DNA of 50,671 bases from Basidiobolus meristosporus CBS 931.73 (GCA_002104905.1 MCFE01000640.1:1-50671), one strand, 5' to 3'. Counted from the first letter of the stretch, positions 27,317 to 49,500 are shown. A program made the numbers and translations. Notes: a model not told the origin generated them from the sequence alone.

Positions 27317-27846
27317 CCGGCATCCCCCCCCTCCAAAGATCAGATCCGGTAATAAAATCGTTCTCGAGGATTTTCATCATCCAGCCCCTCGTTAATCCCC
27401 TCGAGTGACGCCCCATGGAACCTTGAACTCCTATGGTGTTACTTGATTACATGGTACATGCACTGTAAACTGCAAGACTGATCCTTACCCAGAATATGGG
27501 CCGTCATCGAGCCTCATCCGAGGTGACGTCATCCGCCCATGGGAGTTCGAAATGGCAGCGGTGCAGTCGCCAGGTACCCCAATTCCTTGGGCATTGCTAC
27601 CGGAACCCTTCGCTCGCCTCCACGTCAGGTCCGAGGGCCCCCACGAACATCCACCTTGACGGTCACCGGCACACCATACTTGACGCGGTGGCATAGGGCG
27701 TGACATCACCCCAACGGGAATCCTGATGGTCTAGGTACCGCAACCATCCATCGGGATCGGCCAGACCGGTTTTCTCACGCATGCATATGGCATTCAACCG
27801 CAATAGACTTACTAGAGGTGGTTACATGGATCCTCCAGCTGATTAC

Positions 27847-28800
27847 TGTCGTAAACATCGTAAATACACCCAAACATCCACCTAACCCGGCCACTTAGAT
27901 CATTGCCTACAGATCCTGGAGAATTCAGACCAGATCCCTTGTTGGGACCCGCTTGGACTATTTTCACCGAAATATCAGGTATACAGTACACAGTACATGA
28001 AAATTCCCGAAGTTGGCCAAACCGTGCCAAACTTTGCACACATGCTCTTGGGACCTTCCTGAGCATGTTCTACGGGGGTTTTTTTTGGTCAAGACCATGT
28101 AGAAGTATAAATACCACTTTTCCACTCAGTAAATCATCAAGTGAAAACCTTGTGATCCACTTGTTCCCCCAATCACTTCCAATATCTCCAGACTCTTACA
28201 ATAGGCCATGCGCCTCAATAGGTCCCTCTCTGAGTTGCTTACCACCGCTATTATTGGAATTTTCCCCTCTGCTGAAAAGGTGGATGGATTTAACTACCAT
28301 GTCTGGAAGGTGAAGATGAGCATGCTGCCACAGGAAAGAGGTCCTTGGGATATTCTTGTGGGAAAAGAATGTCCTCCTAATGGTGTAGGCGAAGAAGTCT
28401 TAAGGCACCAGAAGAAAGAACAAAGCACCTTTGACTGCATGTATCTCAATGTCAATCACACATTGCTAGTTCAACGCTCAAAAGCAAAAAGGGCCAAGAA
28501 TGCTTGGAGGGCATCAGAACACTGCTTACCATCATACTCAGCTGCAAAGAAGATGTGTCTTTGACAAAAGGTCTTTACCGCAGAGATGCTTCCAGGAGAA
28601 GAATTGAATAGCCTAATTTGAAGAGGTACCCTGTTGGTTGACAAGATGGGATCAGTTTGTGTACAAACCAATGCCACAGATGTCATAGTTGGAAAGAAGA
28701 TCTTATGCAAATGACAACATTTGAAATGTTGCCAGAAGCAACAAAACACTATATTAAAAGCATTTTTGAGTTGACATGCATTCCCATTGCAATCCTCCAG
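27847..28800 (+). mobile_element. Copia 5' LTR (27847-28203) plus degenerate gag fragment
   Basis: LTR homologous to the other copies; gag SAEKVDGFNYHVWKVKM...WDILVG with stops downstream. Confidence 0.8.
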
Positions 28801-29277
28801 TTCTAAGAAATTGTGAACAGACATATCAAATTTTACCTATTTATACAAAAACTACCATCACAAGACTCAAATCCCAGGACCTAGAGGTCTAGATGCTGTT
28901 AGGAGACTATGCAAAGACTAGTACAAAAGGTTTGCACCATATATTCCTTAAAAAGCTTGGGCAAAGGTTTTCATCCCAGTGGCACCTAGGCTGGTTTTGA
29001 CTATTTCACTGCCATTTTTCTCACTTTCAGATTCTGGACACTCATTTGTCCCCCACATATGTGTACATAGATGGGCTGTTGCTTTTTTTCATATTTCTTA
29101 CTTACTTACTTGACCAGTGCCCTTACTTTTCATCCATTCAAATTGGTATAATTCCATTGAGTCTTCCAATGTAACTCAACTGCTGTACTGACATTTGCAA
29201 GTCTATACTCAATACCTGTTGCAAGCACCTTGGAGATGTTGGAAGTGATTAGGAGGACAAATAGATTATATGGTTTC

Positions 29278-29713
29278 TGTTGAAAAGTGTTTAATCCCAC
29301 TCAAATATACACCTAACTTGGTCAATCAGATCATTGCCTACAGATCTTAGAGAATACTCACCAAATTCCTTCTCAGATTTACTCAGAATATCTTAACCAA
29401 TTATCAAGTACCCAGAACATGGAAGTACTCAAGGTTACCCAAAAAGCCCTAACTTTGCACACATGTTCTTTGGATCTTTTTAAGCATATTTTATGTGTTT
29501 GTTAAGCCAAGACCATGTAAAAGTATAACCACCACTTTTTCATTCAATAAATCACTAAGTGAAAGCCACATCATCTGCTTGTTCTCCCAATCACTTTCAA
29601 TATCTTCTAGACTCTGACAACAGGTCATGGGCCCCAAGCTGTCACTCTCTGCAATGTCCACTACTGCTATTACTGGAATTTTTCCCCCTGCTGAAAAGTT
29701 GAATGGATCTAAC
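29278..29713 (+). mobile_element. Copia 5' LTR (29278-29622), PBS and gag start, interrupted at 29714
   Basis: tgttg...acaaca followed by ggtcatgggcccc and PAEKLNGSN. Confidence 0.8.
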
Positions 29714-30249
29714 TGTTATAATTATTTACTTGTCACCTAAATATTGATACCAACATAGTCACCAAGATCTTGTTCTGTGATTAGCATCTCATCCTGACCA
29801 AAGTACTTGTTGGGATTTACTTGGAAAAAATTTATCAAATTATCAGGTACCCATATGACTGCTGTAAGAGTCTTTGAGATAGTGGAAGTGATTGGGAGAA
29901 CAAGTGGATTAAGTGGTTTTCACTCAATGATTTATTGAATGTAAAGTAGTATTAATACTTTTACATGGTCTTGGCATAGCAAACATAAAAAATCCGTTTA
30001 GGATGGTCCCAAGATCATATGTGCAAAGTTTGGGGCTGTTTGGACAACTTTGAGAACTTTTGTGCTCAGGGTACCTAATATTTTGGTGGAAATATTTAAA
30101 GTAAATCCCAACAAGGATTTTGGTCAATATTCTCTAGGATTTGAAGGCAATGATCTAAGCATATAGTTCAGGTGAGGATATAGGTGGAACTACAAATATT
30201 AATAACACTGCCATTCAAATAAGTGTTCATACTAACTAGTCCTAATTCT

Positions 30250-32831
30250 GACCAAAGAAATTCAAACTTGTCTCTAGCCAATGCCTTTGTGAATATATCT
30301 GCAATCATTTCATCAGTAGGACAGTAAGCTAAGTTAACCAAGTTATTCTCTGTAACTTCACTTATGAAATGGTGTCTAATATCTATGTGCTTAGTTCTAG
30401 CATGAAAAGTTGGATTTTACCTAATTGTATACATCCTTGATTATCCTGAAATAAAGCAATAGGCATTGTTTGACATTTGCCTAAATCTTTAAAAAGCTTC
30501 CTTAGCCACATTGCCTCTTTTGTAGCTTTACAGGCTGTCATGCAGTCTATCTCTGTGGTATAAAGTGCAAAGGTTGGTTGGGTTCTTGAGTTCCATGAAA
30601 TTGCTCCTTTACAGTAAAGAAAGGTGTATCCTGTGGTGGATCTTCTGTGTTTCAAATTTTGTCCCCAAACAGCATCAGAGTATTCCACAAGATCCTGTTC
30701 TGAATCTTCATAAGTTTAACTTAAGTAGATATCAGCAGTTCCTTTTAGGTATCTAAAAATCCACTCAACTCCTGCAATATGATCAGATCCATAGTTCTGA
30801 TTACACTGGCTGACAACTCCCACTGGATATTAGATATCTGGACATGTTCTAAGCATGATATACATCAGACTGCCAACCATAGATTTATAATGAAAGCAGG
30901 GCTTCCAGATGGCACCAGGCACTCTTGATTGGTTGAGTTTTAACCAAGTTAAGGTTTGACTCCATTGGGGTAGCTGCTGGTTTACAGTTGTTGATTTGGT
31001 ACTTCCTTAGTATATCTTGAATATACTTGGACTGGCTTAGGGCTATAGTCTGGGTACTTCTGTCTATGAAGAACTTTATCCCTAAGTAGTAACTGAGCTC
31101 TCCTAGATCAGACATCTTGAACTCCTTAGATGGGCTGGATTTAGTCTCTTTCAATGTTTCTAGGTTATTGGTGACTATAAAAAAAGCATCCACATATATA
31201 GCTAATAGAACTGGATCTGCTCTATCTGGCTCAGGGTAGATACTCTACTCAGCATTACTTCTTTTGAAACTCAAAGATTCCAAATAAGAATCTATTTTGT
31301 AATTCCAGGGTCTTGGTGATTGTTTGAGTCCATTTAGTGACTTTTTAAGCTTGCAGACCAAATGGGGGTTGTCTTGGTCAGCGAACCTGTCTGGCTGGTC
31401 CATATATATGTCCTCATCAAGTTCTCCATTCAAAAATGCAGTTTTTACATTATTCAATGTACAAAAACTTATATTTGGCTGCAATAGCCAATATCAATTT
31501 TATGGAATTAAGCTTGGCTACTGGTGCAAAGGTCTCAGTGTAGTCAAGTCCTTTTGTTTGAGGGTATTCTTTGGCCACAAGTCTTGCTTTGTATCTTTCA
31601 ATTGTACCATCAGCCTTGTATTTTGTCTGAAACACCCACCTGCATTCAATCAATTTTTGGTTGATTGGTAGTTTGACCAAGTCCCAAGTTTGATTTTCTA
31701 CTAGGGCCTGATGTTCCTCAGTCACTGTAGATCTCCAAAACTTTGTCTGAGAGCTGTTGAAGGCCTCTTCTACAGTCTGGGGCTCATTAATATGGACTGA
31801 ATAAGCATAGGCTAAGTTTGTACCCTCATTAATACAGTAATTTGGGCTATTTCTTGTCTGGTTCAATTTCTGGGCAATTGATGCTGGAATGAGAACTTCT
31901 GGGATATTCCTGGGCAGCAATTCAGGCTGAACCATGGTTGTAGAGTCCTCTGGAGGGAAAAAACTTTCATTTTTGGCTCTGATTCAATCCTGACAATTGG
32001 TATACTTGAGATTGTATATTTGTCACCATCTGATGACATTGTTTGAGAAACTTGAGTTTTCATCAAACAGCACATCCCTGGACATGATCAGCTTCTTTGC
32101 TTTGGTATTGCAGAGTCTGTATGAATTACTCTCATTGCAGTAGCCCAATAATATAAATTTTGCACTTTTTGGCTCATATTTTGACTGATTTCTGGGCAGT
32201 TTCTTGGCATATGCTGTACACCCCAATATTCTTAGATATTCTGCACTTGGTATGTATCCATACCATGCCTTGAATGGAGTAGAATAACAGAGTATTCTGG
32301 TATAACTCCTATTTTTAAGGTATACAGCTATAGCAACTAATACCACCCAAAAACTGTAGGATACTTTTTGATCATGGATCATTGATCTTGCCATATCAAC
32401 TATTGATCTGTTTGCACATTTTGCTACCCCATTCTGCAGTGGGGAGTATGCTACAGTAGTCTCTTGCTTTATCCCATCAATTTTGCAGAAGTAGAAGATA
32501 GGTATGAGGTATATTTTCCACCATTGTCCAAGCAGATTTTCTTAATTTTTTAACCAGTCTCTCTCTCCACCATGGCTTTAAGCTCCCTGAGCTTAGACAG
32601 AGCTTCTTTCTTTCTCTCTATGAAGTAGACCCACAGGTATCTTGTATAATCATCAATTACAGTGATTAAATACTACATCCCACTTAATGATAAATTTTGC
32701 ATAGGTCAACACACATCTGGGTGAGTTAAATCTAATCTTTTCTTAGTATTAGTTAACCCAGAGCTCTTGAATAGTTGTCTGGCTTGTATCCTATATATGT
32801 AGGCCTCACAATGCTCCAAACTAGCTGGGGG
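30250..32831 (-). pseudogene. Copia integrase-RT-RNase H remnants
   Basis: IDDYTRYLWVYF, TPLQNGVA, KKLPRNQSKYEPKSAKFILLGY, TFAPVAK, YLGIKF, STTGY; many stops and frameshifts. Confidence 0.9.
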
Positions 32832-32835
32832 ATAA

Positions 32836-33612
32836 AATTTACTCTGGAAATATGAAATTAATTGTAATATCGTTTGGTTAATTCTGTATTTGGCTGTTAT
32901 TTTGATAAATGCACTTTGTTGGATAATTAATCATAAACTTAAATGTTGCAAATCTTTGCAAGTTTTGTTAAATCCATGTTGGTATGATGGAAGTTACAAA
33001 TATGGACTAATTTTTATGTTATTATTGGTGTATATATTTTGTTGTGGTTATCAAAAGGAATTGGGTTTTATATGGTTTATTTTTTATTATATGCATTTTG
33101 CATGTAGTTTAGTAGCTATATACGCAATGTTTTTTTGCAAATTTATTACTTTAAATAAGTATAATTTGCCTATATTAAATAGTATTAACTGGGATATTAA
33201 AATCTCTTATTCTGATGAGGTCAAATTTGGTAGCACTAATATTAAAAACATAGAACGCCTTAGACTTTATGTGGACGCTTATTTATCTGGAAAATATGAT
33301 TATCCAGACAAATATAAACAACAATTTAGACAAAAGTTTAATAATTTAAAACATAAGTTCGATCAAGAATACAACCAGAATGCTGGGCATGAAATAAATT
33401 ACGTATTAAAGCAACAATTGGAACAAAATTTACAAAATGTAAATCAGGAATACAAAAAGTTTGAACGTAATTTAACAACTATAGAACAGTAACACAAACA
33501 AGAAATTCTTGAACAGGAATCCAAACTTTTTAATTTTAAATACATCAAACGTTTATCTGATAACAAACTCAAAGAATTTAAAAATATATTTATGTCTGCA
33601 ATTATATTTTAG
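32836..33612 (+). pseudogene. Insert ORF A: 5'-truncated membrane plus coiled-coil protein; in-frame TAA at 33490-33492
   Basis: Hydrophobic N-terminal helices; the frame continues past the stop as HKQEILEQESKLFNFKYIK...KEFKNIF, homologous to the ORF B C-terminus. Confidence 0.65.
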
Positions 33613-33697
33613 ATATTATAGATGTGATAAAATTATTGTTTTTTGTCAAAATTTACATCTTGATGTTTAAAAAAGTTAATTCGGAAAAAGTTTTAAT

Positions 33698-33801
33698 TTT
33701 GATTTTTAATATTTAAATTTGGTTTTTGATATTTGATTTTTAAATTTTAAATTTGGTTTTTGATATTTGATTTTTAAATTTTAAATTTGGTTTTTGATAT
33801 T
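33698..33801 (+). repeat. Three tandem 34-bp T-rich units
   Basis: ggtttttgatat recurs at 33721, 33755 and 33789. Confidence 0.85.
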
Positions 33802-34063
33802 TAATAATTAAACTTGATATTTGAAAAATGTTTTTTAAAAAAGTTTAAATCTTAATGCAAAAAATTATTTCGGGTTTAATGCCAAAAAATGTACAAATAA
33901 TATAGCAAGAAATTATTAATTCCATTTACGCAAATAAATCAAATACAATTAACTTATTGATGTCAACATTTATGTTATAATATTAATAATACAAAAAAAC
34001 CCTTTCTCAATGTGAGAATTAAGTTACAAAATTGGACAATTGTGTTGAAGATATATTTATATA

Positions 34064-35008
34064 TTGTATATACCACTTTTATACAATCAAATATTTTACT
34101 CAGGCGGATCTGCTAAACACACATATATTGCATGTTTTGTAATTATTGCGTTTTTGATTTTAATAAATGCAACATGTTGGATTATTAATTTTAAAATTAA
34201 ACGCAGAAAGTATTTGCAGGTTTGGTTGAATCCAAGTTGGTATGATAGCAATAAAAAATATGCAATAATAGTGTGTTTGTTACTATTACCAATAATATGG
34301 CGTTTTTTTTGAACAGAATTAAAGAAAAACAAGACTATTATTTGTTATTTGCACTTTGCAATGATATTACTAACTATTATAACCAATCTTGATTTTAGTA
34401 AACCAGAAAGGTGTAATTTATATGTTTTAAATAACATTAAATGGGATATTAAATTATTGCTTAGGGATGGATTTTATTATAACAACAGTAATATATTTAA
34501 TATAATAAATCTCAAAGATTACGTAGGAACTCTTTTATTAATCAATGAATTAAATAATAAATACACCGATAATTTTATACAAAATTTAAAAATTAATTTT
34601 GACCCACAATTAAAAGAGAAATTGGATACGTTGGAGTATGATTTAATTTGGGCTAAACAAGAATCAAAAAGGGTGTTGCAAAAATATGAAGAAGATTTAA
34701 AATACAGATTAAAACTTAAAATGGACAAACAAAGATCAAGGCAAAGATTAGATAGGATACAACAAGAGTTGAAAGGATTGGTCTGGAATTTTAACAAAAA
34801 TATGGAACAAAAACCTGAACAAAAAATTTTACAGCAGTTTGGAAACTTAAGATGCAAATTAGATAGATTAAAAGAAATATTAGAAAAGAAATCCAAGTGT
34901 TTTGAGATTAGATATATAAAACATTTCTCTAACGATGAACTAAAGGAGTTCAAAAATATATTTTTAGATGATGAAACATTAGATGAAGTTAAAATAGGAT
35001 GCAATTAA
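34064..35008 (+). pseudogene. Insert ORF B: paralog of ORF A; single in-frame TGA at 34310-34312
   Basis: ORFs 34064-34312 and 34349-35008 share one frame; LINA.CWIIN, LNP.WYD, MHFA, LN.I.WDIK and KEFKNIF shared with ORF A. Confidence 0.7.
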
Positions 35009-35408
35009 ACAAATATTTTGCATTAAAAAAATTGGGATGAATAAAAATAAATTTTTGGTAAATAAGTTATTATGTTTGAATTAAAAAGATTTTTTGTATG
35101 ATTAAGTTTTGGGTTTAGAGTATTTGTTTAAGTTTTTTGGGATGACAAAGTTGAGATCTTGATGTTTAAAAAAGTTAATTCGGAAAAAGTTTTAATCTTG
35201 ATGCTTAAATTAAGTTTTTGATTTTTGATTTTTAATATTTAATATTAAAATTTGGTTTTTGGAAAATGTTTTTTAAAAAGGTTTGAGTCGGGTTAAGAAT
35301 ATTGTTTGATTGTTGTATATAATAACATACAATTTTTACGAAACTTAAAAAAAAATTTCTTGCATTCTTACAGACGTTGAAGTTGCAGAAGTAAATACAG
35401 ATCTTACT

Positions 35409-35762
35409 TTGAATGCGTTAACGTTTTTGAACAAAGATCTTTTTAATATGATATCTTTGTCTACTAATAGTGTTGTTACAAATGGATCATGCCAAGGATA
35501 TAATTATTTTGGTTATTTAAACTACAACAATAATACAAATATAAATATTTTGCAAAACAAGACTTTTGAAGCAATTAATTTGTGTTCAACAAATGGTTCT
35601 ATGTATTGTTCTGCCCAATGTAGTTATATCAACTTTATAAATACAAAAATGTATACAAATATTACAACTCTGGGTAGGAATTGTGTATTTCCAATTGGGT
35701 CAAGCAGTTCTAAAATAACTATAAACGGGTTGTTTATAATGTTAATTGGCATTATGATTTAA
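35409..35762 (+). CDS. Insert ORF C: Cys/Asn-rich glycoprotein-like fragment with hydrophobic tail
   Basis: Five N-X-S/T sequons, five Cys, SSSS then TINGLFIMLIGIMI; frame open from 35349 with no clear initiator, so probably 5'-damaged. Confidence 0.45.
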   Translation: MNALTFLNKDLFNMISLSTNSVVTNGSCQGYNYFGYLNYNNNTNINILQNKTFEAINLCSTNGSMYCSAQCSYINFINTKMYTNITTLGRNCVFPIGSSSSKITINGLFIMLIGIMI

Positions 35763-35879
35763 AACTGGTTAAAAAAAAATAAACAAAATATACATTAGAA
35801 TAAAAACATAGATTAAAAAAATCTGGACTAAAAGTCTGGAGAAAACTTTTTTATTTGTCAAAGTTTAGTCAAAAAAGTT

Positions 35880-36305
35880 TTGCGTGATGACAAAGTTTAG
35901 ATCTTGAAAAGAGTTTGGCGGGAAGACTAAACTAAAATCTTGAAAAAGTTTAGTCGAAAAAAGGTTGCGTGATGACAAATTTTTTTAAAAAGAGTTTTGC
36001 GTGATGACAAAGTTTAGATCTTAAAAAAAGTTTGGCAGGAAGACTAAACTAAAATCTTGAAAAAAGTTTGGTCAAGAAAGTTTTGCGGGATGACAAAGTT
36101 TAGATCTTGAAAAAGGTTTGGGTCAAGAGAGTTTGGGAGTAGAAAGATTAAGTTTGGTCAAGAAAGTTTTGCGGGATGACAAAGTTTAGATTTTGAAAAA
36201 AGTTTGGTCGAGAAAGTTTTTTAGGATGACAAAGTTTTAATCTTGATGTTTAAAAAAGTTTTTTAAAAAGTTTTCATGATGATAAAGTTTGGATCTTGAA
36301 AAAGA
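35880..36305 (+). repeat. Array of at least 7 copies of gatgacaaagtttagatcttgaaaa with related spacers
   Basis: Copies near 35886, 35970, 36003, 36089, 36175, 36225 and 36278, plus a dispersed copy near 35140. Confidence 0.85.
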
Positions 36306-38112
36306 TGTTAATTGGAGTTTGACGGTTAGACTTTGGGAAATGTTGTTAGAGAAAGATTAGGGTTTATAAAAAAAGTTTTATTAAGGGGTGGGAGTTAGGT
36401 TTGAAAGGAGTTTTAAAAAGGGATAATCATTGGGTTAGAATGGTTATTGTTCAAAATTTAAGATAAGATCTTTGGTGGTGCTAGCATAGCCGTTAATCTG
36501 GAGTTTATTTTGGTGGGTTTTAACGTGACAGTTTTTGCAAAGAGCAACGAGATTAGATTTAGAATTTTTGTGGCAATGGTCGATCATACCATTGTTTTCA
36601 GAAGTGTGTTGATGTTGGATATGGTGGACATTGATAGGGAGGTCGGTGGTTTGGGTAGGGACGTAGTTGCAGATTTGACATTTGTAAACAAGTTTATCTT
36701 TGTTGTAACGGCTATATTTGGAGTATTGGTTTAGAAGACCATTGGCAATAGTGGGACAAGTTTTATCTTCACGGGACAAAATGTTGGCACGGATTTGGAA
36801 AGCTTTTTGGAGGAAGTTAGAGTCCATGTTAAGGAATTCGCAGACTTTGAGGCCATAAATGGAGTCACAGGGGCCTTCTTTAATTTTGCGTTCAAAGATA
36901 ATAACATTTTTAGAATTAATATGTTCAAAATTAACAGAAAGATGAAAAACTTTAACGTTGGGAATATCTTTGATAAATTTGTAGATGTTGTGTAAATGGG
37001 TGGTGAACATAAAGCTGATATTTTGTTTGGCAAGAGTCATGACGCTGGAGGCAAAGATGGCAGATCCAGAGATATGTTCTGTGCCGTGGATAATTTTGTC
37101 GGCAAGAACTAAAGTGTAGGGGTCGGCACATTTGAGGATATTTCTAAGGTCAGACATTTTGGCAACAAAGAAGGATTGGCCTTTGAGAATATTATCTTTG
37201 CTAAGGATGCAAGTCATGAGAGATTTGTAGGGAGAGAATTTGAAAGAAGAAGCGGGGACAAAGGAGCCCATTTGGGCAAGGATGATGGAGAGGCCACAGG
37301 CTTTGAGGAGGCTGGTTTTGCCACAGGAGTTCATGGAGTATAAGATGATACCGTCATGGTTGTTGGTACCAATGGTGATATTGTTAGGGACATATTCTAG
37401 ATTAGTTTGGAGGCGTTCAATGAGGGGGTGATGGAGATCAGTGGCTTTAAAATAACTTTTGTTGGAGAGTTTGACAACAGGGCGGCAGAAGTTGTAGAGG
37501 CAACTAATTTTGTAGTTAGATTTAATAACGTCAAATTCGGCAACAAAGAGTTTGATGCAACAAAAGATATTTTTGTAAGAAGATAAGTGTTTGAGGCTGC
37601 TAAGGAAGAGAGATTTAAGTTGTTTGTTAATTTGGTCATCTAGGGAGAGAATATGATTGCTAATGTGGGTTAGGCTGTTGGAGGAGATTTTGGTGTTTAA
37701 TTTGTCAGATTTAAAGGTAATGTAATTGTTAGAGATGAAAGATTTGGTTAAGGAAGATTTAAGTTTGGTGGCAAAAGAATTGGTGACAGAAAGATAGTAT
37801 CCAGAGCGGGGAGAATAGTCGACTTTAATGGGGATAAGTTTTTTGTTGACATATTTGCGTGAGGTAGAAGAAAGATAAGAGAGGGCGTGAGAAGAGAGAG
37901 CAAAGGCAATATCTTCTAATTTGTCAAGTTCAGAAGTTTGAGAGTTGGAGAGGGAGTCAAGATTGGGGAAGATACCTTTGCAAAAGATGGAGGGATCAAG
38001 GGTGCCAGTGGTGGGGATATTATCAATAACAAAGATACAAGAGATGTCGTTAACAAATTTGTTAAGAAGGGAAATTTTGTGTTGAGACAAGAGGATATGT
38101 TGTAAAGAAGAT

Positions 38113-38430
38113 TTGGGAGGTAAAGTTTGTGGGTTAGGAAGATCATCAGATGAAGAGGAGTGTCTATTGGGAGGCTCATCGGATGAAAAGGAGTGTCTAT
38201 TGGGAGGCTCATCGGATGAAAAGGAGTGTCTATTGGGAGGCTCATTGGATGAAAAGGAACGTCTATTGGGAGGATCATCAAATGAAGAGGAGCGTATATT
38301 GGGAGGCTCATTGGATGAAGAGGAGCGTATATTGAGAGGCTCATTGGATGAAGAGGAGGGTATATTGGGAGGATCATCAAGTGAAAGAGTTTGTAGGTTG
38401 GGAAGATCATGAGAGGAAGAAGTAGTATTA
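38113..38430 (-). repeat. In-frame 33-bp tandem repeat (~8-9 units, PNRHSFSSDEP-like) inside MutS7
   Basis: Repeated gaggctcatcggatgaaaaggagtgtctattgg variants on the plus strand. Confidence 0.9.
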
Positions 38431-39300
38431 GGGGAGGAGAAGGCAGGAATAAGAAGATTGCAAAGATCAAGGATAGCTTTGTAAGAGGTATAGAGTTGAG
38501 AAAGTTTGGGTAAAGTTAGAACTTCTAATAAAAGTTGGCGATGAAGTTGTTCAAGCTTGGCAATATTAGTTAAGAGACGATCGAAAGTTTTTACGGAAGG
38601 TTTGAAGAGAGAACCAAAGTTGTCAAGTTGGCAATAACGATGTTTTAATTTGTGGGGATTGGTGACAGGAGAGAGGAGACGCTTTTTAAGGAGTTGTTTA
38701 CCCATTTTAGTAGAACAGAGATTGATAATGTCAAGTAAACATTGGGTTTGATTAGATTTGTGGGAAGACTTGGATTTGGGGAAGTGGATAAGATCAAGTA
38801 GGTCTATAGTATTGGTGGCAAGGAGAAGATGGTTGGAGGATAAAAAGATTTCAGGAGGGGAAAGTTTGCGGACAAGCACAGGATTGTGGAGGTAAAGGAA
38901 TTCTATAAGAAGGACGTAACTAATAAGAGCGAGGGGTTTGCGTTCAAGATCTAAAAATTCTATGTTGGAGAGCATGGTTTTGTGGGGGAAGATGTTGCCT
39001 AATAGTTTGTTCTGGTAGTTGAGTTGAAGAGCTTTAGGAGTGGCATCTATGTAATGGAAGAGGATATTGTTGGAGTAGAGTTCTAAGTAAGATACAAGGT
39101 TGAGGGATTTAATAAAGTCTAAATATTTGGAGGGAGAGCAGAAGACAACTTCACAAGGGTGGTATTGTTTGAGGAAGGAGAGGATATGATCAAAAGAGAG
39201 ACAATGATCTTTGGGGGTAGAGTTAGATTTGTAAACGGTATTTTTACCGGTAATAACATCAATGGCACTAATACCAATGTTAAAAGAGATATTATTGGAT

Positions 39301-39372
39301 TCAGAAATTAATTTTTTATTGGTGTCAGAAATTAATTTTTTATTGGTGTCAGAAGTTAATTTTTTATTGGTG
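39301..39372 (-). repeat. In-frame 24-bp repeat x3 (SDTNKKLI) inside MutS7
   Basis: tcagaaattaattttttattggtg units at 39301, 39325 and 39349. Confidence 0.85.
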
Positions 39373-39990
39373 TCAAAGAATAAGAGAACAAGATAATTGC
39401 GAGAGACAAGAGATTTGTCAACGTCAACATAGGTGGAGGGGCTAATAATATTGGTAACTTTGCGGGTGATATTGGGAGGGGAACCTTTTTGGTCAATAAT
39501 AACAAGGGTGTAGTTATGCTTGAGTAATAAAGGGATGTATTTTTTAAGTGCGACACAGGGGAAGCCGACGAGTAGGGGGTTGGAGCGGTTGTTGTAAGAG
39601 AGTTTTTAATTTTTTTTAGTTAGGATGATATTATGGAGCTCGGAGATATTGGCTGGGTTACCAAGTTTTTTGGTATTGTTGTCAACACCGTAAATTTTGT
39701 AGAAGCTACCGACTTGCATAAGAACAATGAGTTGTTGACCATATTGGTGTTGGTAGAGAGTTAAAAAATTAAAGTATTTGTTGACAACGGATTCTTTACT
39801 CATGTTCAATATATGAAGGGGTGGATGAGGGTGTAACCAATTTAATTGGATGGAGATGAGAATGGGATGGACATGGATAGTTTAGTGGGATATTTTTTAA
39901 AAGGCAGGGGGGAGGGTTCAACAATCAAAGAAGAGATATACATGGGGCGTAAAGAGAGGATAGAAATAAAAGTTGTTAGTAGAATATATC

Positions 39991-41300
39991 TTCAAGTATA
40001 AATTTGGCACTACAGTAGTAAACTTTGCACAAGTAATGAAAATTGATATACACATATCTCCTATGCCAAAGCCTTGGTGCTTCTTCCTTCAAGTTACTTA
40101 TATTGGCTTCCAGATATGATGGAACTTAAGTCAACTTATACAGATTCTGATCTCCAATACCCAAAGCAATATGGGCACCATTTTGATCAGTGATCCTGCA
40201 TCCAGAATTGTCAAAGCTGAAGCTGAGTCCTTCTACAGTGGCCTTGCTTACAGATAGTTGGTTCTTGGCTATTTCTGGCACATAGAGTACTAATTTGGAA
40301 GTCAGTGTATGGCTTACTTCACTGCTTCTGAGGTTTACTTGGATAGTTCCTTCTCCCACTGCATCAAGTGTTCTATTGTGACCTATGAAAACCTTCTTAA
40401 TTGAAATCTCTTAGTATTGGGTAAGACGCTCTTTTTGGTGAGTAAAGTGTTGAGATGCTCCAGAGTCAATGTACAACATCTGAGATTTCTTGTTTGTGGT
40501 CATATATGGTGTAGATATGAGTAGTCTATCTTCAGTTGTTGCAGCATTTCCATATTCAGGCTTCCTTTGCTGATTATCTCTCTTTTTGAGACACCAGTCA
40601 GATTTGTGTCCATTCCTTTTGCAGTAGTTGCAAAACAGGTTGCTGTTGCCTTTGTAAGGTCTTGGGTACCTCCTTTGTTGGTTACCGTAACTTATTAAGG
40701 CATTTTCTTCTTCCTTCTTATTGGCACTTGATTTTCTTGATTCTTCAGCCAGGAGCCTTCCATATATATAATTTAAGGTCAAATCTTCAGCTCTGAACTC
40801 TAGGGCTGATATAAGGCGCTGAAACTTGTCTGTCAGGCTATTCAGGATGGTAACTATCTCATCCTCATCAGTAGTTGGTATGCCCATAGATTCCATCTCA
40901 TCCTCCAGCAGGGTACTTCTGTTAATAAGATTCTTGATTTCTTCTCCTGGCATCATCCTTGTAGTAAAGAACTTTTGTCTTGGATACATTTTCTTGCCAG
41001 CCAAACATGAAGGTAGGTGCTTTCTAATGCCTTCCAGGCATTCTTTGCTGTTCTTGCTCTTGAGCATTAAATTAGTTATTTGTCTTTACCATTATGGCAA
41101 ATGCAGATAAAGACACTTTGCTCTTTCTTCTGGTACTTCAAGGCTTCCTCTCCCACATTTTTAGGAGAGCATTCTTCTCCCATGACAATATCCTAAAGGC
41201 TTCTTTCTTGTAGCAGCATCTTCATCTCAACCTTCCACACTTGACAGTTGGATCTATCCAACTTTTCAGCAGAGGGAAAATACTAGTAATAGCAGTAGTA
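39991..41300 (-). pseudogene. Copia gag, zinc knuckle, protease and first half of GAG-pre-integrase
   Basis: RQKFFTTRM, CNYCKRNGHKSDWC, LYIDSGASQHF, NQLSVSK, LWHRRYVYINF. Confidence 0.88.
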
Positions 41301-41336
41301 GACATTGCAGAGAGTGACAGCTTGGGCCTCATAGAG

Positions 41337-41684
41337 TATTGTAAGAGTCTAGGAGATATTAGAAGTGATTGTCAAGACAAGTAGATTATGTGGTTTTCAC
41401 CTAATGATACATTGAAAGCAAAAGTAGTATTTGTACTTTAACATGATCTTGGCATAAAGAACATGTAGAATAGATTTAGGAAGGTCCTAAGAGCATGTGT
41501 ACAAAGCTTGGGGTGGTTTGAACAACTCTGAGAATATTCAGGTTCTGGGTATCTGGTATTTTGATGAAAACATTCTGAGTAAATACCAGCCAGGAATTTG
41601 AGCAGTATTCTCTAGGACCTGAAGGCAATGATCCAAGTGACTAAGTTAGGTGAATATTTAAGTGGAATTCAAATTTTGACAACA
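41337..41684 (-). mobile_element. Copia 5' LTR of the split element
   Basis: tgttgtca...ttacaata in element sense, followed by a degenerate PBS and gag. Confidence 0.85.
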
Positions 41685-41940
41685 GATGGATCTAACTACC
41701 ATGACTGAAAGGTAAAGATAACAATGCTGACATAGGAAAGAGGTCCTTGAGATATTTTGTGGGAAAGGAATGCACTGCTAATGGTGTAGGAGAGGAAGTC
41801 TCAAGGTATCACAGAAGGAACAAAGCACTTTTGACAGCATATATCTTAATGTCAAATGTATATGGCTACTTCAGTGTTCAAAAGCAAAAATGGCCAAAAT
41901 GCCTGGAGGGCAATGGAACACACCTTACCATTGCCCTATG
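41685..41940 (+). pseudogene. Plus-strand Copia gag fragment (DGSNYH*KVK...)
   Basis: Homologous to gag at 28280-28520; resumes where the gag at 29640-29713 stops. Confidence 0.7.
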
Positions 41941-43213
41941 AAAAATAACTTGGTCCTGCAGGTGAATCTGATCCAGATCTGCCATCAGGATCCCATTTGG
42001 ACTCTGTCATAATGCCAGCAGCTTGGAATTAGTGACCCTCTTAACAATCTTTTGATGGAATCACAACAGCATATAGCTAATTTTACTGTTAAATAAATGT
42101 ATAAAACTTGACAGGGTTTGATTGGTGCTCTGGCAATAATTGCATGGTATTGTTGTGGTTGTAGTGTGTGGTACCACCATCTTAAATGGATTTATCTGGC
42201 CTGTACATCCAACTTTTTTATATGGCAAATAACTTGACGGTGTTTTAAAGGCCTCATTGCAAGTCTCTAATGGCATTATGACAGCACTATGGCAGCCTAT
42301 ACCTTGTTATATATAGTGCTACCATACCAATTTACCAAATGGTACTTTGTTTTTCTACCTCCCCTTGTACAATTCATATATTCCACTGTAGAATCACCCC
42401 TGTTATTTACTCACACACTACTACCTTGGGTATTCCATCTATAGTTCAAATAAAAAAGAACTATGGCCTCCTGCTTACTAATCTCTGCAGACATGCACAC
42501 CTGCTACAATTGGCATACTTCTATCACCTCAACTTTACAGCTTTTTAGTGTGATACTTGCAAAGTAGCCATATACCTTGTACTACTGGTAACATACACAT
42601 ATTGCAAACATATGCTTAGTTGCCACCACTAGTGTTGTGAATACCTCCTGAGTATCCACAGAGTACCTTTTGGTATTTAGCCAATATATTCCTATCATGA
42701 TCACATGACAACCATGAACACCTGTGCCAAGTTTCAGCTCCCTAGCTCAATTTCTAAGAGATTCCTTCTGGAACCTTCTACCACCTTCCAGAAAGTTCCT
42801 GACCATTCCAAATCATTGTTAAACAATGGAACATTCCATGGAAGCTTTCCATTGTATTTTTCATAGTACAGTACCATATATGGAAATACCAGGTCACATG
42901 ACTTAGTCGCATGATCAGGTGACCCAATCCATCTCCCATCCCGTCTCAGTGCCGTGTCATCTATGTCAATATCCCCAGCACCATTGCTGTGCCTCACTCC
43001 ACAACCCCATTAGTATTAGCTGATATCTCTTGGCATCAGTATAGCCAAAAGTATATATAGTCCTATCCCCCCTTAAGTATTCCTCAGTCTGATAAACACA
43101 GGTCTTGAATAAACAGCCTTGCCTTGAATCCTGCCTTGCCTTGATGGTCCACACCTAAGTCCTTTCCTGCCATGCCTAGCTTTTCCTCCTGCCTTGTGTC
43201 TATTCATAACAGT

Positions 43214-43224
43214 TTTATCAGACT
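43214..43224 (+). promoter_or_regulatory. Self-priming primer-binding site (Tf1-like)
   Basis: tttatcagact is the exact reverse complement of agtctgataaa at 43086-43096, ~30 nt downstream of the LTR TATA box. Confidence 0.75.
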
Positions 43225-44169
43225 CTCCTGACTTACCTGTGAATCCCTGCCTTCTGCCCAAAGTTTGAAGAAAACTTGTAAAAGGAATACTCACTGTAAG
43301 TATCACCCATCATCTTTCCCTAGTCTTGTCCTATAAAGGCAAAGATGCTTTATCTTTGTAAAACTATTGGTCAAAGCTGCATTCACTTTATTACCCTGCT
43401 GGTGGAGTTTACAGTTGTTACAGTATTGGAAGCTTTAGTACAATACTCTATCAAAGGATGTCAAAACCAGTACCTTCTGAAGTGACGCTGTGGTGGTGTA
43501 TAAGTCCAGAGGGCAAAATACGGCCAACACTTCTCAAGTGTGAATGTGTGTGGGGTGTTCACTGGGTGTGATAACCTCTGGCAAAAGCTTGCTAGGAATA
43601 CTGGGTCTTTTGTCTAATCTAATGTGATGGGGGATAAAGCCTCAAGCTTGTCAAGGGAAAACTATTGAACTACAATCCCCAACTTAGTTGGTGTCTTAAC
43701 AAAAGTTTATAATGGCTTTGATGTCCTTTGAGATGACAATGTACTAAAGCTTCCAAAGTCAAAATAACTGTAAACTCCACCAACAGGGACTTGATAAGAA
43801 TGCAGCTTTGACCAATAGTTACAAAGACTGAAAAGTATCTTTGCCTGTACAAGAACAAACTTGGGAAAACAAACAAATATAATAAAATATACCTACTCTG
43901 AGTATTCCTCACAAGTAGTGCCTCCAAGGTCAGTTGGCTGTCAGCACGGTTTCCTGGGCGTTGTGGTGGTGTAGAGGTACTCCTGGGAGAAGCTACACAA
44001 CTCAAGGTGTGTGAGGTGTTTGATGGGTGCAATAACCTCTGTGTCTAAACTGCTGGTGTCTTTGTCAATATGTCACTATGGTAAAAGCTCCTGCTTCTCT
44101 AGCTTCCTAGGTGCTCCAAGTGTCTCCAAAGGCCTCTGTGTGTCTTGTGCACTACCCTGAAAAGCTCCT

Positions 44170-45379
44170 TGATGGCAGGTCTGAGATGTACTGTTGAAGG
44201 CAGGTGCAGTGATCAACTGCTAATCAATAAGGTAGAAGTGTTACTGATAGAAGGGATGATTTATTGATGAGGGATTGCTTTCCCTTAAATACTTTTCCTG
44301 ATTGCCAAGTGATTACTAATGTAAAGGTTCTAGAAGATTCTAGGTATCAGTGGAATTCTTGATGACATCACAATGAGCTAAAAATATGCCGAGAATGTCC
44401 TGGAAGGTTCTAAAAGGCACAGCACATTCAACCAATCAGGAATCAGTTGTCTGAAACCTATGCAACATAGAAATACCATACATGGTATTGAAATGGTAGG
44501 GATGGTAACACAGACTTAGGTCATGTGTCACAGGTACTGACGCGGGTACTTGCCTTATATAGATACATCTACTGATTACAAAGCTGAATAACATCTGGGA
44601 TAACTAATGCTAATAACTAATCAGGGTAAACATCATATGGGGATAATACAGATAATATGGGCAAAAGAAGAATGGGATAATACTGATAAGATAAAATATG
44701 GATAAGTATATCATAATGACTATATGAGTAAACTTGTCTGTGGGAGGTTTGTTTACCCTACCACAGCGTGTCGTCAGGTCTGAGTCAGAAAATAGTGGTA
44801 ATAGGTAGCGGTGATCTCACTAATCAATAAGTCGGAATATTGGAAGAGGGATCATTTATTTTAAGGGATAGCCTCCCTTATATACTTTTTTGCTGCTTGA
44901 ATTCTTGCTAGAAAATACTTTCCGGAAGTTTCCAGAAGGTAGTAGACAACCAATCATGTCTTTGTGTACTAAAAATAGCGCAAATTCTTGGCGGATTGTT
45001 CCATGAGACATAGTAGCACCTAGCCAATCAGGTAGTGGTAATATGAAACCTCTGTGTCATGTGGTTGCCTCTTATGGTAGTGAGATGGGGGGGGGGTTAT
45101 GAAACCAAGATGGTCACGTGACATGGGCACTGTTGGGGTACTTGCCTTATAAGCTAACTATCTTATCTTGGCATCTTGGCAAGGAATAAGAATAGCTTGT
45201 GCAATGGGTTAATAGTGACAAATAGTTTGTCAGGTTGCATAGTAATAATCACATAGACAAAAATAGGAAATATTGCAAATTTGGGATGATAATAATATAG
45301 GCGGGGTAATCCTTTTTAGGGAAGTGAACGCATAAGAATGAGCACATCTGCCTGTGGGTGTCACTGTGACCCCACTACA
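44170..45379 (-). mobile_element. Two tandem ~600-bp solo-LTR-like units (44170-44765, 44769-45379) nested in the chromovirus leader
   Basis: TG...CA ends, colinear diverged homology (caggtctgag, ctaatcaataag, ccaatcagg, gggtacttgccttata); TATA then AATAAA on the minus strand; no TSD found. Confidence 0.6.
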
Positions 45380-45511
45380 ACGCTAACTTATTTAAGTTGG
45401 GGATTGTGGCTCAATAGCTGTATTCTTACATACTAGTGGCTTTACAAACCCACAATCTAGTTTAGTATATTCCAGTATTCCTTGCAAGTTCATCCTCCTT
45501 CCTCTGCTACC

Positions 45512-46444
45512 ATGTCCAACCTAGAGCTGAACTTTGCCCAGCTCATGGCTGCCTTTACCCAACTGCATCAAGACCATGCAGGCCTCAGAAACACTCTTGC
45601 TCAGTTCCAGAACCAAAGTGTCCAGCAAACTAGCCATGTCCCAGTCTACCAAGAACCCAAGTATACTCCTGCTACCAAGTTCAATGGCTCTCAGAATGAA
45701 TTCCGTGGCTTCATCAACATGGTGAAGAACAATCTTGCCCTCCAGCCCAACCAGTACCCCACTGACCAGGCCAAAGTTGGTTTCATCTCCAACCTGCTTA
45801 CTGGTACAGCTCTCAAGTGGTTCTCCCCATTAGTGGAGACCAACTCTCCCCTCTTCAGAGACTACCAAGCTTTTCTCACCGAAATGGAGCTAACATTTGG
45901 TGACCTTGACCAAGCCAGAACTGCTGCCAACAAGATCAAGACCCTCAAGCAAGGGAACAAACCAGCATCAGTCTATGCCTCAGAATTCCGACAACTCTCC
46001 AGTGACCTCAGCTCCTGGGGTCAAGCAGCCTTGATTAGCCAATTCCAAGATGGCCTCAATGATGAAGTTTGTGATCTACTACTCACACTCCCAGATCCAG
46101 ATACATTGGTTGAAGCTATGCACCAAGCAATCCGGTGTGATAACAGACTATTCCAGAAGAAGCAAAAGAACCGTCAAAGACACATTCCTGTTGCAGTCCC
46201 AGCCCCTCCTGCTCCCCAAGTCACTCCAGAAGATCCTATGCAGATTGATAGTGCCAAATACAAGAAACAATCATAGAGTGAAAAGTCCAGACGTCAACAA
46301 GCCAACCTCTGTCTATACTGTGGCCAACCAGGTCACTTTGCCAAGTCCTGCCCCAACAAGAAGTCCAGCTTCAAGCTGATGCAGTCCTCCAGCAACCAAC
46401 CTGATTCAGATCTGTTGGGAAACTCCAATGTCCAGTTGCACTGA
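45512..46444 (+). pseudogene. Chromovirus gag with CCHC knuckle; in-frame TAG at 46274-46276
   Basis: LLTGTALKWF, YASEFRQL, FQDGLNDEV; [14 protein letters not shown] lies in frame after the stop. Confidence 0.9.
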
Positions 46445-46537
46445 CAGGCTTGCAACTGGACCCACCCATGGAAATCCAGCATATCCAAGAATCTTCCTTT
46501 GCCACAAAATCTATCCAGTCCTTGAGAATGCCTGTCA
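46417..46537 (+). promoter_or_regulatory. -1 programmed ribosomal frameshift signal
   Basis: G GGA AAC at 46417-46423 in gag phase; 10-bp stem 46431-46440/46451-46460; loop complementary to 46530-46537; pol is in the -1 frame. Confidence 0.85.
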
Positions 46538-49500
46538 AAATCCAGATCCCTGACTCCAGTCCTGTCCCAGTTCTAGCCCTGATTGATTCCGGTGCTTCAT
46601 CCTGTTTCATTGACCAAGCCTTTGTCCAGAAGCACTCTATTCCTGTTACCTTGAAATCCTGTCCAGTCCAAGTAGAAGTTATTGATGGAAGATCACTCTC
46701 CTCTGGTGCCATTACCCATGAAACATGCTTACTTCAGCTGTCCAGTACTGCTCACCAAGAAAGAATTGCCTTCAACATCATCAACTCACCACACTATCCT
46801 ATTGTGCTTGGAAGCTCATGGCTGAGCTACCACAATCCAAGTATTGATTGGAAATCCAAAATCCTGTCATTCACCAGATCCCACCAAGTCAACTCCATGA
46901 AATCTCCAGACCCTGATAACCGTGAAAAGACTGTTGCCAACAGTTCAACAGCCCAAGATACCTTGCCAGCTGAAGGAGCCCCCTCAGCAAACATACCAGC
47001 CAAGTACCAAGAGTTTACCCATGTGTTTGACAAGAAGAAAGCAGAACTCCTCCCTGACCATTGGCCTTATGACTGCCCTATTGACCTTGAAGATGGAAAA
47101 GTCCCTCTATTTAGCCCAATATATAACCTCTCCCAGCCAGAGCCAAAAGAACTCCATGGTTATATTGAAGAAAACCTCCAGACGGGTTTTATTCAGCACT
47201 CCAATCACCTGCTGGAGCCCCAATCCTCTTTGTCAAGAAGAAGGATGGCACACTCAGAATGTGTGTGGACTACCGTGCTTTGAATAAGATCACATTCAAG
47301 AACCGCTACCCCCTGCCCCTGATCAACACACTGTTGGATCAGCTCTCTGCTGCCCAAGTCTTCACCAAGATTGACTTGAGAGGAGCCTACAATCTTGTCA
47401 GAATCAAGCCCGGTGTTGAATGGAAAACTGCCTTTTGCACAAGATATGGTCACTTTGAGTACAAAGTAATGCCATTTGGCCTCACCAATGCCCCTGCTGT
47501 GTTTCAACACCTCATGAATGACATATTCCGTGAATACCTTGACCAGTTTGTGGTAATCTACCTTGATGATATTCTCATATACTCCAAGAGCCAAGATGAA
47601 CATGATGAACATGTCAAGAAAGTATTGAGAAAACTAGACTCTGCCAGTCTCTATCCCAAGCTAGAGAAGTGTGAATTTGACCAGAGAGAAGTGGAATTTC
47701 TTGGTTACCTCATCAGCCCTGAGGGAACAAGAATGGACCCAAAGAAAGTTGACTCAGTCCAATCCTGGAAAACTCCAAGCTCAGTCAAGGAAGTACATCC
47801 TTCCTGGGATTTGCCAACTTCTATTGCAGGTTCATAGCCAACTACTCCAAGATAGTCACCCCTCTGACAAAGCTTACCCAGAAGAACACACCTTTGGCCT
47901 GGAATGAGGAGCAATCCAGCTCATTCAACCAACTCAAGAAATCTTTCCTGAAGGCCCCCCTGCTTGCCCACCCTGACCTTGAGAAGCAATTCATAGTGGA
48001 GACTGATGCTTCTGATTTTGCCCTTGGTGCCATACTCTCCCAGGATGATGAGGACAATGTGTTGCACCCCATTGCATTCTACTCTTGGAAGTTTTCCCCT
48101 GCAGAGATCAACTATGATATCTACGATAAGGAGTTACTTGCCATCATTGTAGCCTTTGAGCAATGGAGACACTACCAGGATGGTGCAAAACACAAAATCA
48201 AAGTCTTCTGTGACCATAAGAACCTTGAGTACTTTGCAACTTCCAAAGTACTAAACCGGAGACAAGCCAGATGGTCACTCCTCCTGTCCAGCTTTGACTT
48301 TACTATCACCTATAGACCTGGTGCAAAGCAAGGAAAGCCTAATGCCCTGTCCAGAAAAAAGGAATATGTCCTGGAAGAGGGAGATGATGCCTGTTGGCAA
48401 ATGAAACACCCATTGCTGAGCAAGAAACATTTTGAGATTCTTGCCACCCAGTCCTCAAGTCTTGTCATCCCTTCATTCCTAGTAAGGATATCAGAATCCC
48501 AAGCCTCTGATATGACTTCCAGCACTGTCAAGAAATATCTGGAATCCCCAGTTGGGCCCCCTCCCAAGTTCCCAAACATCCAGAACCTGCATTTGGTAAA
48601 CAACCTCATCTACCACAAGCAGCAGCTTTATGTCCCAGACCTTGCCACCCAGCTAGACATCATTAAGTCTTGGCATGATTTAATGGCTGCAGGCCACTTT
48701 GGTACTGTCAAAACCTTGAATGATATCAAAAGAGATTTCTGGTGGCCTAGAATGATAACTCTTATCAAAGAATACATTCTGACTTGTGATATTTGCAACC
48801 ATGCAAAACCAGCTAGACACCAGCCCTATGGACTTCTTCAGCCCTTGCCTATCCCAGAACACCAATGGAGATCTATATCTATGGACTTCATTACTGACCT
48901 CCCTGAGTCATGTGGCTTCAATGCTATACTTGTAGTGGCTGACCGGCTGACCAAGATGGCTCACTTTATCCCTTGCTGTAAGAACACTGATGCAAAAGAA
49001 ACTGCTGTTTTAGTCCTGAAGAATATTTTCCGCCTTCATGGTATCCGCAGTGATATTGTGTCAGATTGAGGCCCACAGTTTGTGTCCAAGTTTTGGAAAC
49101 ACTTCATGCAATACCTTGGTGTTCAAGTCAAGCTCTCTACTGCCTTCCATCCACAGTCTGATGGCCAGACTGAAAGAATCAACCAGATTCTAGAGCAATA
49201 CCTCCGGTGCCATATCAATTACCAGCAAGACAATTGGGTTGATCTACTCCCTGTTACTGAGTTTGCCTACAACAACTCAAGCCATAGTGCAATCAGTTTT
49301 ACACCATTCTATGCAAACTATGGATTCCACCCTCAGTTTGATATCCAGATTCCAACAAACCCAATGAGCCCACATGCGGCTGAACATGCCCATGCAATCC
49401 AGGACATCCAGAACACCCTCAAGGAAGAGCTATCCTTAGCTCAGGAAAGCTACAAGAAATTTGCCAATCTAAAATGGCATCCCAGCCCTGATCTTAATGA

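Follow-up and report, generated by a model that had tools for sequence, protein, structure and literature searches.

Positions 1-50671 of scaffold MCFE01000640.1 (assembly GCA_002104905.1) of Basidiobolus meristosporus CBS 931.73, a stretch of 50,671 nucleotides referred to here as the window, contain a Copia retrotransposon that is interrupted by an insert at 32853-40013 carrying a MutS7-type gene and three further open reading frames (ORFs A, B, and C). The insert is Nucleocytoviricota DNA of the pithovirus-related fundsalphavirus lineage, not of Imitervirales, and it is a nuclear fossil. We propose, at a probability of roughly 70%, that a viral piece was ligated by end joining into a double-strand break in a probably dead Copia copy and then decayed at CpG sites. 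The evidence comes from the assembly, from public protein and metagenome collections, and from contigs of the sequencing runs X1, X2, and X4-X6, of which X4-X6 are three runs of one sample from another study, with the same species label and with host genes 7-14% different from those of the window. The element and its insert are composed as follows.

29863-30207, minus strand: Copia 3' long terminal repeat (LTR), TG...CA, 345 bp, sharing 76% identity with 41340-41684 and 82% with a solo copy at 6529-6876; a purine-rich tract adjoins.
30208-32851, minus strand: Copia pol side, broken, with the end of the gag-pre-integrase domain, integrase, SH3, reverse transcriptase (RT), and RNase H (Pfam SH3_retrovirus, RVT_2).
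32851-32853: left junction; Copia ends at 32851 (empty-site contig, X1) and virus homology starts at 32853 (X4-X6 contigs).
32854-33612, plus strand: ORF A, an orphan with a hydrophobic N-terminal part and a predicted coiled-coil C-terminal part; 5' end cut, stop at 33490-33492.
33629-33846: AT-rich spacer with a 34-bp tandem unit, repeated at 35128-35284 (repeat families D3, D5, and D15).
34049-35008, plus strand: ORF B, a paralogue of ORF A (41% identical) with a hydrophobic N-terminal part; stop at 34310-34312.
35349-35762, plus strand: ORF C, a small Asn/Cys-rich orphan with a hydrophobic C-terminal end; start unclear.
35856-36302: array of a 38-nt spacer motif (family D5), holding 8 of the 10 copies in the insert.
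36444-39803, minus strand: MutS7-type gene, a pseudogene (MutS I-V and a C-terminal HNH-like finger); stop at 39606-39608.
39804-40013: viral DNA upstream of MutS, extending to where homology stops on the right (loose ends of X4-X6 contigs behind 40013).
40014-40023: 10-nt filler in which the last viral bases recur as a 5-nt fold-back.
40024-41333, minus strand: Copia primer-binding region, gag, protease, and start of the gag-pre-integrase domain (Pfam Retrotran_gag_2).
41340-41684, minus strand: 5' LTR-like copy, TG...CA, perhaps foreign to this element.

The viral lineage was identified through a second scaffold of the same assembly. The best match of the MutS protein is P0002 (ORX78500), which is 94% identical and is encoded together with P0165 (ORX78502) and P0163 (ORX78503) on one 33,329-bp scaffold, hereafter the twin cassette. 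In Gong 2020 (PMC7017919; this and the other papers cited were available in part, and statements about them refer to those parts), a 33,329-bp scaffold is described with a fundsalphavirus DNA polymerase, an SNF2 helicase, MutS_III, and a coiled-coil ORF, and the fundsalphaviruses are placed as Pithovirus-related, with a moss group nested inside them. Independently, a 49%-identical MutS lies near a family B DNA polymerase (PolB) and a split RPB1 in the IMG/VR contig L002, and among named proteins two from moss come closest to that PolB; RPB1 pieces also adjoin MutS in contig L001. Membership of the polymerase in the fundsalphavirus clade is given by the published tree for the twin scaffold and by the best named matches for L002. 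The other genes shared by fundsalphaviruses (D5, SNF2 helicase, methyltransferase, and RPB1/2/5) are all absent from the window, and the SNF2 helicase is present on the twin scaffold.

The MutS proteins themselves point in the same direction. In a quick tree of 28 rows (omitting L005, L008, and L009, which lie near L004, L007, and L006, and 19 of 25 short matches), the five Basidiobolus rows form one clade (support 100) within a 21-row clade (99) that includes L001, L002, and L010 and stands apart from L003-L007. The window protein is 46-50% identical to L001, L002, and L010 and 33-38% identical to the L003-L009 group. Because the linked polymerase is pithovirus-related and the MutS clade is separate from L003-L007, the insert is not assigned to Imitervirales, to which one paper mainly ties MutS. 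Solved MutS1, MSH, and MutS2 proteins score at most 126 bits, whereas the 10 nearest metagenome proteins reach 652-801 bits, and in a fast tree of 14 rows, which held no MSH row, the single MutS1 row stands outside, on a long branch. The initial annotation was right to regard the insert as truly integrated Nucleocytoviricota DNA. Its preference for Imitervirales did not hold, nor did its notion of an unsampled virus, since polymerases of endogenous fundsalphaviruses had already been described from this species in 2020 (PMC7017919).

A scan of genome_contigs for a prokaryotic MutS7 returned no relative among 59 candidates, a metagenome scan yielded 1 locus out of 602 candidates, and a scan with the polymerase alignment gave 80 distant loci (23-34% identity), with a weak MutS match in one of them (L027). 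Relatives of ORF A/B were matched in none of the 91 loci examined. In L002, a dUTPase, a MYND-finger protein, and a truncated globin lie near MutS7 (13804-15980). An intact 332-residue member of the ORF A/B family, P0164, is encoded on a 1348-bp Logan contig, and the PolB proteins P0043 and P0044, from sequencing-run assemblies, are 55-56% identical to that of L002; all three may likewise represent live members of the lineage.

The insert is AT-rich (GC 0.315, with 0.23 in ORF A/B and 0.39 in MutS, against 0.38-0.40 in Copia) and, as first described, intronless and MutS7-bearing. MutS occupies a single frame of 1119 codons, interrupted by one stop. Pfam MutS_I, III, IV, and V were matched on both the window ORF and the twin, and the C-terminal HNH domain (PF01844) was matched on the last 118 residues with an E value of 0.0025 and 18.4 bits, below the cutoff of 21.4. 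This HNH match is weak but present in each relative scanned (21.0 bits in L002; precomputed for P0008). The architecture is that described for MutS7 of Mimiviridae, Epsilonproteobacteria, and octocoral mitochondria, in which MutS I/III/V are followed by a C-terminal HNH (PMC6163669, PMC8438181). As of 2018, MutS7 was termed Mimiviridae-only among these viruses, whereas the present case links it to a pithovirus-related polymerase. Two repeats lie inside the gene, a 33-bp tandem array at 38137-38420 and a 24-bp array at 39292-39375. The 33-bp repeat, which encodes a Ser/Pro-rich stretch, corresponds to the domain labeled "mucin-like" in the published figure (PMC7017919) and so is not a product of decay; it seems to be present in the high-depth form of X4-X6 too, where contigs break at it. 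GC skew is extreme over MutS (36000-40000), at 0.44-0.62 on the plus strand, and is unmatched elsewhere in the window. The deposited gene models span lesions by apparent false introns, P0168, the model of the window MutS, omitting 59 residues around the stop and P0002 about 200 residues with a frame change, so that dead viral genes come to resemble intron-bearing host genes. We also considered 39972-40013 as the end of a polymerase gene, which a comparison with 15 polymerase C termini did not support.

The remaining ORFs are nearly without relatives. A search of 1.84 billion representatives returned five matches to ORF A/B, of which three are convincing: P0163 and P0165, both B. meristosporus proteins, and the Logan protein P0164. 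The other two, P0166 and P0167, were dropped as short repeat or coiled-coil matches, and the ESM Atlas held no usable match to ORF A. ORF A is 93% identical to P0165, and 7 of the 11 differences are CpG-type. The intact P0164 has about 40 additional N-terminal residues, in agreement with the earlier observation that the left junction truncates ORF A. ORF C had no NCBIfam or Pfam match, and its ESM Atlas matches reached at most 0.79. The 38-nt spacer motif recurs in X4-X6 contigs, arranged otherwise, and its 18-nt core had no match in viral_contigs.

Both ends of the insert were located from the host side and from the virus side. On the minus strand, the gag side of Copia runs to ...LWHRRYVYINFHYLCK (INFHYLCK) and ends at 40024, and the pol side starts at 32851 with ISRV codons followed by KFYPPASLEHCEAY one frame over; the split reported previously is therefore genuine, with its ends shifted from about 40010 and 32835. 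An X1 contig of depth 160 links 32851 to 40027 via 21 other letters (among the best 12 of 40 matches) and represents an empty site in another Copia copy. Because the window retains only 3 of these 21 positions, as the last codon, 18 bp of the gag-pre-integrase region were lost and replaced by the insert and the 10-nt filler. On the virus side, X4-X6 contigs match the insert from exactly 32853 and continue for 595-1269 nt into other sequence, and at the other end they match up to 40013 and then diverge. Both junctions are thus fixed from two sides, and the evidence for the joins as such is the assembly together with Copia colinearity. No target-site duplication (TSD) and no terminal repeat is present at the insert ends, the former as already noted. 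A fold-back of 5 nt like that of the filler occurs at 42 of 7139 insert positions (0.6%). A transposon or Helitron was rejected given the absence of terminal repeats and a TSD and the ends cut in mid-gene; a CACTA word at 40008 is wrongly oriented.

A mid-gene cut, a small deletion, a short and partly templated filler, and the lack of a TSD characterize non-homologous or polymerase-theta-type joining rather than the action of an integrase or a reverse transcriptase. The course of events we propose would start from a fundsalphavirus fragment, recognized by database matches and by the published scaffold on which the same genes stand beside a fundsalphavirus DNA polymerase and an SNF2 helicase (PMC7017919). 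Its anatomy at the junctions, with ORF A cut, 18 bp lost, and a fold-back filler, suggests that it entered by end joining. Copia would have been a chance landing site and not a carrier, a likely outcome because the family is very large here: its summed contig depth is 4-8 x 10^5 compared with 247 for host genes, a sum of depths and not a copy number. Judging from the 78-250x form found in X4-X6, the donor would have been a virus that was maintained in the cell at high copy. C-to-T loss at CpG sites, probably after methylation, has since altered conserved MutS residues. In a live virus, by analogy with the family, MutS7 would work next to the polymerase, sensing mismatches and nicking DNA without partner proteins.

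The Copia element has the Ty1/Copia order of gag, protease, integrase, RT, and RNase H between TG...CA LTRs. It is no intact full-length copy, lacking near-identical LTRs, a 5-bp TSD, and an open ORF. Its pol side holds about 6 stops and 6-7 frameshifts by eye, with an observed/expected (o/e) CpG ratio of 0.01, and its gag side holds 2 stops within a long frame, with a CpG o/e of 0.06. The LTR-like ends, first estimated as about 70% identical, are 76% identical to each other, each is 82% identical to the solo copy, and, in line with that estimate, they have no TSD and their flanks are unlike; these identities fit one old element. The six bases at 41334-41339, between the primer-binding region and the 5' LTR, are unlike those of 32-42 family contigs (X1/X2; loose ends behind 41333). 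Because these adjoining bases differ from the Copia family, the 5' LTR may be foreign, from another Copia copy. The earlier caveat that the two halves could come from different copies therefore may apply to this LTR; it is unlikely to apply to the internal halves, whose breakpoints lie within about 20 nt, a proximity expected by chance in about 1% of cases if they belonged to different Copia copies. Inverted Copia LTR and 5'-end pieces cluster at 27846-29853, adjoining the 3' LTR.

The initial annotation had offered template switching besides break repair as the route of capture, and had supposed that the retroelement could have moved the viral genes as cargo. Break repair fits the junctions. 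Capture by template switching followed by transport has very little probability, even though the insert sits within the element, two other B. meristosporus polymerase scraps are drawn among Copia domains, and Gong 2020 proposed that retrotransposons might aid integration and proliferation (PMC7017919). Both strands of the insert carry genes, separated by spacers, and there is no poly(A); the insert also breaks the only ORF of the element. With about 8 stops and 6-7 frameshifts (by eye), Copia is far more damaged than the insert, which has 3 stops in about 1690 codons, and a retrotransposed carrier would have begun with identical LTRs, compared with the 76% found. The twin cassette is drawn without a Copia domain beside it (PMC7017919). 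Several copies with the same cargo and junctions, as cargo would leave, were not found: in X1/X2, ORF A/B are at the depth of one contig, a finding that is not final, as contigs can merge near-identical copies.

The insert has decayed in the manner of its host genome. The CpG o/e ratio is 0.51 in the insert, between 0.01-0.06 in Copia and 0.66-0.97 in host genes, and it is 0.93-1.16 in the viral relatives L001, L002, and L010. Window and twin MutS share 836 of 895 aligned residues (a comparison that omits residues 402-625, mostly missing from the gene model of the twin), and 43 of the 59 differences are CpG-type with the window derived, compared with 4.2% expected of all single-base changes (p ~1e-46). 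Among G>A/C>T changes alone the fraction is 43/49, compared with 22% expected (p ~1e-22). At 37 sites the ten outgroups agree with the twin and at 6 with the window; at the other 16 they match neither. Invariant MutS ATPase residues are altered, including Glu 903, which we take to be in Walker B, and the three long ORFs (A, B, and MutS) hold one stop each. The CpG decay likely stems from host methylation followed by deamination; 5-methylcytosine (5mC) on fungal transposons is stated in PMC11244446. All transposon remains in the window (3000-6153, 27846-32851, and 40024-50671) are nearly CpG-free, with ratios of 0.13 for LINE, 0.09 for Gypsy, and 0.01-0.06 for Copia, and host genes retain their CpG. 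This contrast is a very sharp methylation footprint.

The same comparisons bear on the donor. The patch could have been copied from an integrated nuclear copy, such as the twin, during ectopic break repair, instead of coming from free viral DNA. The closeness of window and twin in MutS and ORF A suits this, as does the expanded 24-bp repeat that the two share and that is absent in strain B (48 nt shorter) and in the B. ranarum protein P0016; moreover, X1 shows no high-depth form of these genes (bins fully within the insert reach at most ~670, compared with 247 for host genes). The twin, however, is far less decayed (end branch 0.014 compared with 0.071), although one would expect a nuclear donor to be no younger, and position 397 apparently decayed separately in each copy. 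Heavier methylation within Copia could explain the gap in decay. MutS7 pieces are annotated on five scaffolds of the assembly (33,329, 50,671, 261,329, 30,783, and 134,283 bp); three short ones span 87-99% identity to P0002, and a B. ranarum copy is 83% identical. Their unequal decay argues for repeated capture, and we regard a nuclear donor as unlikely. The lack of a high-depth form in X1 also led us to reject a mitochondrial origin of the octocoral type for this strain. Capture of free viral DNA by end joining is the reading we retain.

Several points weigh against it. The twin cassette is equated with the published scaffold by the shared length of 33,329 bp and by gene content, and the window has no polymerase, capsid, or ATPase gene. 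Lesion counts are what place the death of Copia before the insertion, and the decay spectrum is what suggests methylation as the cause. The empty site comes from one contig of another Copia copy, X1/X2 may be the same sample as the source of the window assembly, and the fold-back of the filler was noticed after the fact. Among the longest pieces, which were those compared for X1, X2, and X4-X6, no contig bridges either junction. Finally, the X1 contigs that match ORF A/B exactly reach only 0.16-0.20 of host-gene depth, which may mean that the insert is present in only some nuclei or haplotypes. Depth in X1 falls with GC over eight pieces, from 247 (GC 0.56) through 221 (0.42), 152 (0.40), and 89 (0.29) to 40-50 (0.24), which suggests library bias as a fitting explanation. 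The lack of a bridging contig and the low depth would also suit an assembly chimera or a contaminant contig fused into a repeat. Such an artifact is very improbable: the insert bears the CpG decay of the host and stops, which are unexpected in a free contaminant; X1/X2 contigs match it exactly over 616-1015 nt; and its two joins fall within about 20 nt on the Copia map without homology that could mislead an assembler.

A high-depth form of the same genes is present in the related strain behind X4-X6. Given as single-contig depths, which are not copy numbers and stem from contigs that omit rare variants, a host reference contig of 6.9 kb (6894 nt) stands at 30, 30.6, and 13.7 in the three runs, and MutS-homologous contigs stand at 7507 (2184 nt), 7494, and 3274, or 239-250x host. 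Other MutS pieces are at 194-214x, the ORF A homologue is at 2601, 2607, and 1251 (85-91x), and the ORF C homologue is at 2449, 2705, and 1063 (78-88x). These ratios recur in all three runs. Among 10 MutS sites listed of more than 2000 rows, the 8 that change an amino acid all give the undecayed residue of the twin, and the MutS indels among the rows listed are in frame or mutually compensating. The neighborhood is unlike that of the window, with other sequence behind MutS and a further A/B paralogue. The viral genes differ from the window by 10-12%, comparable to host genes, consistent with an element carried by Basidiobolus.

A free or reactivated replicon in the related strain is, on balance, a slightly favored explanation of these depths. 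With similarly cautious preference, we suggest that this strain carries a live pithovirus-related virus or a capsid-less derivative at high copy (~250 genomes per host genome), which would be the first replicating fundsalphavirus, would have MutS7 beside its polymerase, and would shed fragments including the scrap nested in Copia. A capsid-less form is possible because no capsid gene from Basidiobolus is reported in the two papers checked: no B. meristosporus accession appears in the trees of the major capsid protein (MCP) or A32 in the available part of PMC7017919 (10 places located), and no MCP was found by hidden Markov models in 40 non-zoosporic fungi (PMC13533422). The depths could instead reflect recent nuclear amplification, as a tandem array or a young mobile family, library bias, or the virus of a contaminant, an account that deserves serious weight while falling short of an even chance. 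All three runs come from one sample of one study, only contigs were compared, no capsid gene is known from the two papers, and there is a threefold gap in depth between MutS (194-250x) and ORFs A and C (78-91x). That gap matches the GC effect in X1, and the excess itself is visible in single contigs (2184 nt at 7507 compared with the 6894-nt host contig at 30) in 3/3 runs. Nuclear repeats shatter in these assemblies, into 1697-1884 small pieces that are mostly Copia, whereas the viral contigs stay at 0.8-2.2 kb; the undecayed MutS residues and the host-like divergence likewise speak for the replicon. Fungal extrachromosomal elements have been published at 7-80x (PMC13348850) and ~50x (PMC13533422).

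The rest of the window is fungal, with genes for an amino-acid transporter, chitin deacetylases, arrestins, TCP-1, ALDH, and DM9 proteins amid LINE, Gypsy, and Copia remains. A Gypsy element at 42761-50486, with LTRs 95-97% identical and 7272 bp apart, is much younger than Copia. The stretches 12841-16851 and 17325-20469 hold a recently tandem-duplicated polysaccharide deacetylase gene (95-98% identical, period of about 2.57 kb) and a divergent arrestin pair. The protein at 7855-8700 has a CBM5/12 module and weak LPMO matches (AA10, E 0.002; AA9, E 0.006) and could be a bacterial-type chitin-active enzyme. No tRNA gene was found in the window.

The locus can be compared with several known systems. 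The endogenous fundsalphaviruses of PMC7017919 belong to the same lineage and include this species, with three B. meristosporus polymerase pieces and retrotransposons nearby. That study screened for polymerases only, leaves MutS unmentioned in its main text, treats all elements as fossils, and, in the sections available, has no junction analysis, decay spectrum, or read depth; the present locus has no polymerase and is absent from the three pieces listed there. The Mycodnaviridae of Allomyces are likewise integrated fungal giant viruses, present at ~50x in one strain, which was taken as a high titer, and CpG-methylated on part of the virus (PMC13533422). They differ in lying near Algavirales/Imitervirales, in their zoosporic hosts, and in having a capsid gene and a 350-kb provirus with inverted terminal repeats; the available part of that paper does not mention Basidiobolus, Pithovirus, or MutS. 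In Amoebidium, 5mC-silenced giant-virus insertions similarly show repeated capture tolerated under CG methylation (PMC11244446), although that host is non-fungal, methylation was measured, and the insertions are large, compared with a probable methylation and a 7-kb scrap here. The cytosolic virus-like elements of Mucoromycota and Zoopagomycota are capsid-less high-copy double-stranded DNA recognized by 7-80x coverage, and they differ in their protein-primed polymerases and their size of 8-53 kb (PMC13348850); MutS and Basidiobolus are not mentioned in the available text.

The locus adds a fossil to a lineage known from the B. meristosporus genome since 2020, with unusually clean evidence, namely base-level junctions from the host and virus sides and a clear CpG decay spectrum. 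Pithovirus-related viruses of fungi and moss are known only as pseudogenes, with fossils in six fungal phyla and moss. Our search of the openly accessible literature turned up neither a replicating fundsalphavirus nor any recognition of MutS7 in this lineage, and the main text of a 19-genome Basidiobolus preprint makes no mention of virus or viral. Active giant-virus infection of fungi has so far been described in zoosporic hosts and from another lineage (PMC13533422). The locus matters mainly as a pointer to the lead in X4-X6. If the 78-250x form is a free replicon, public reads would yield the first genome of the lineage and settle the capsid question. In that case, a culturable fungus would be the host of a replicating fundsalphavirus, and MutS7 would lose its status as a Mimiviridae-only marker.

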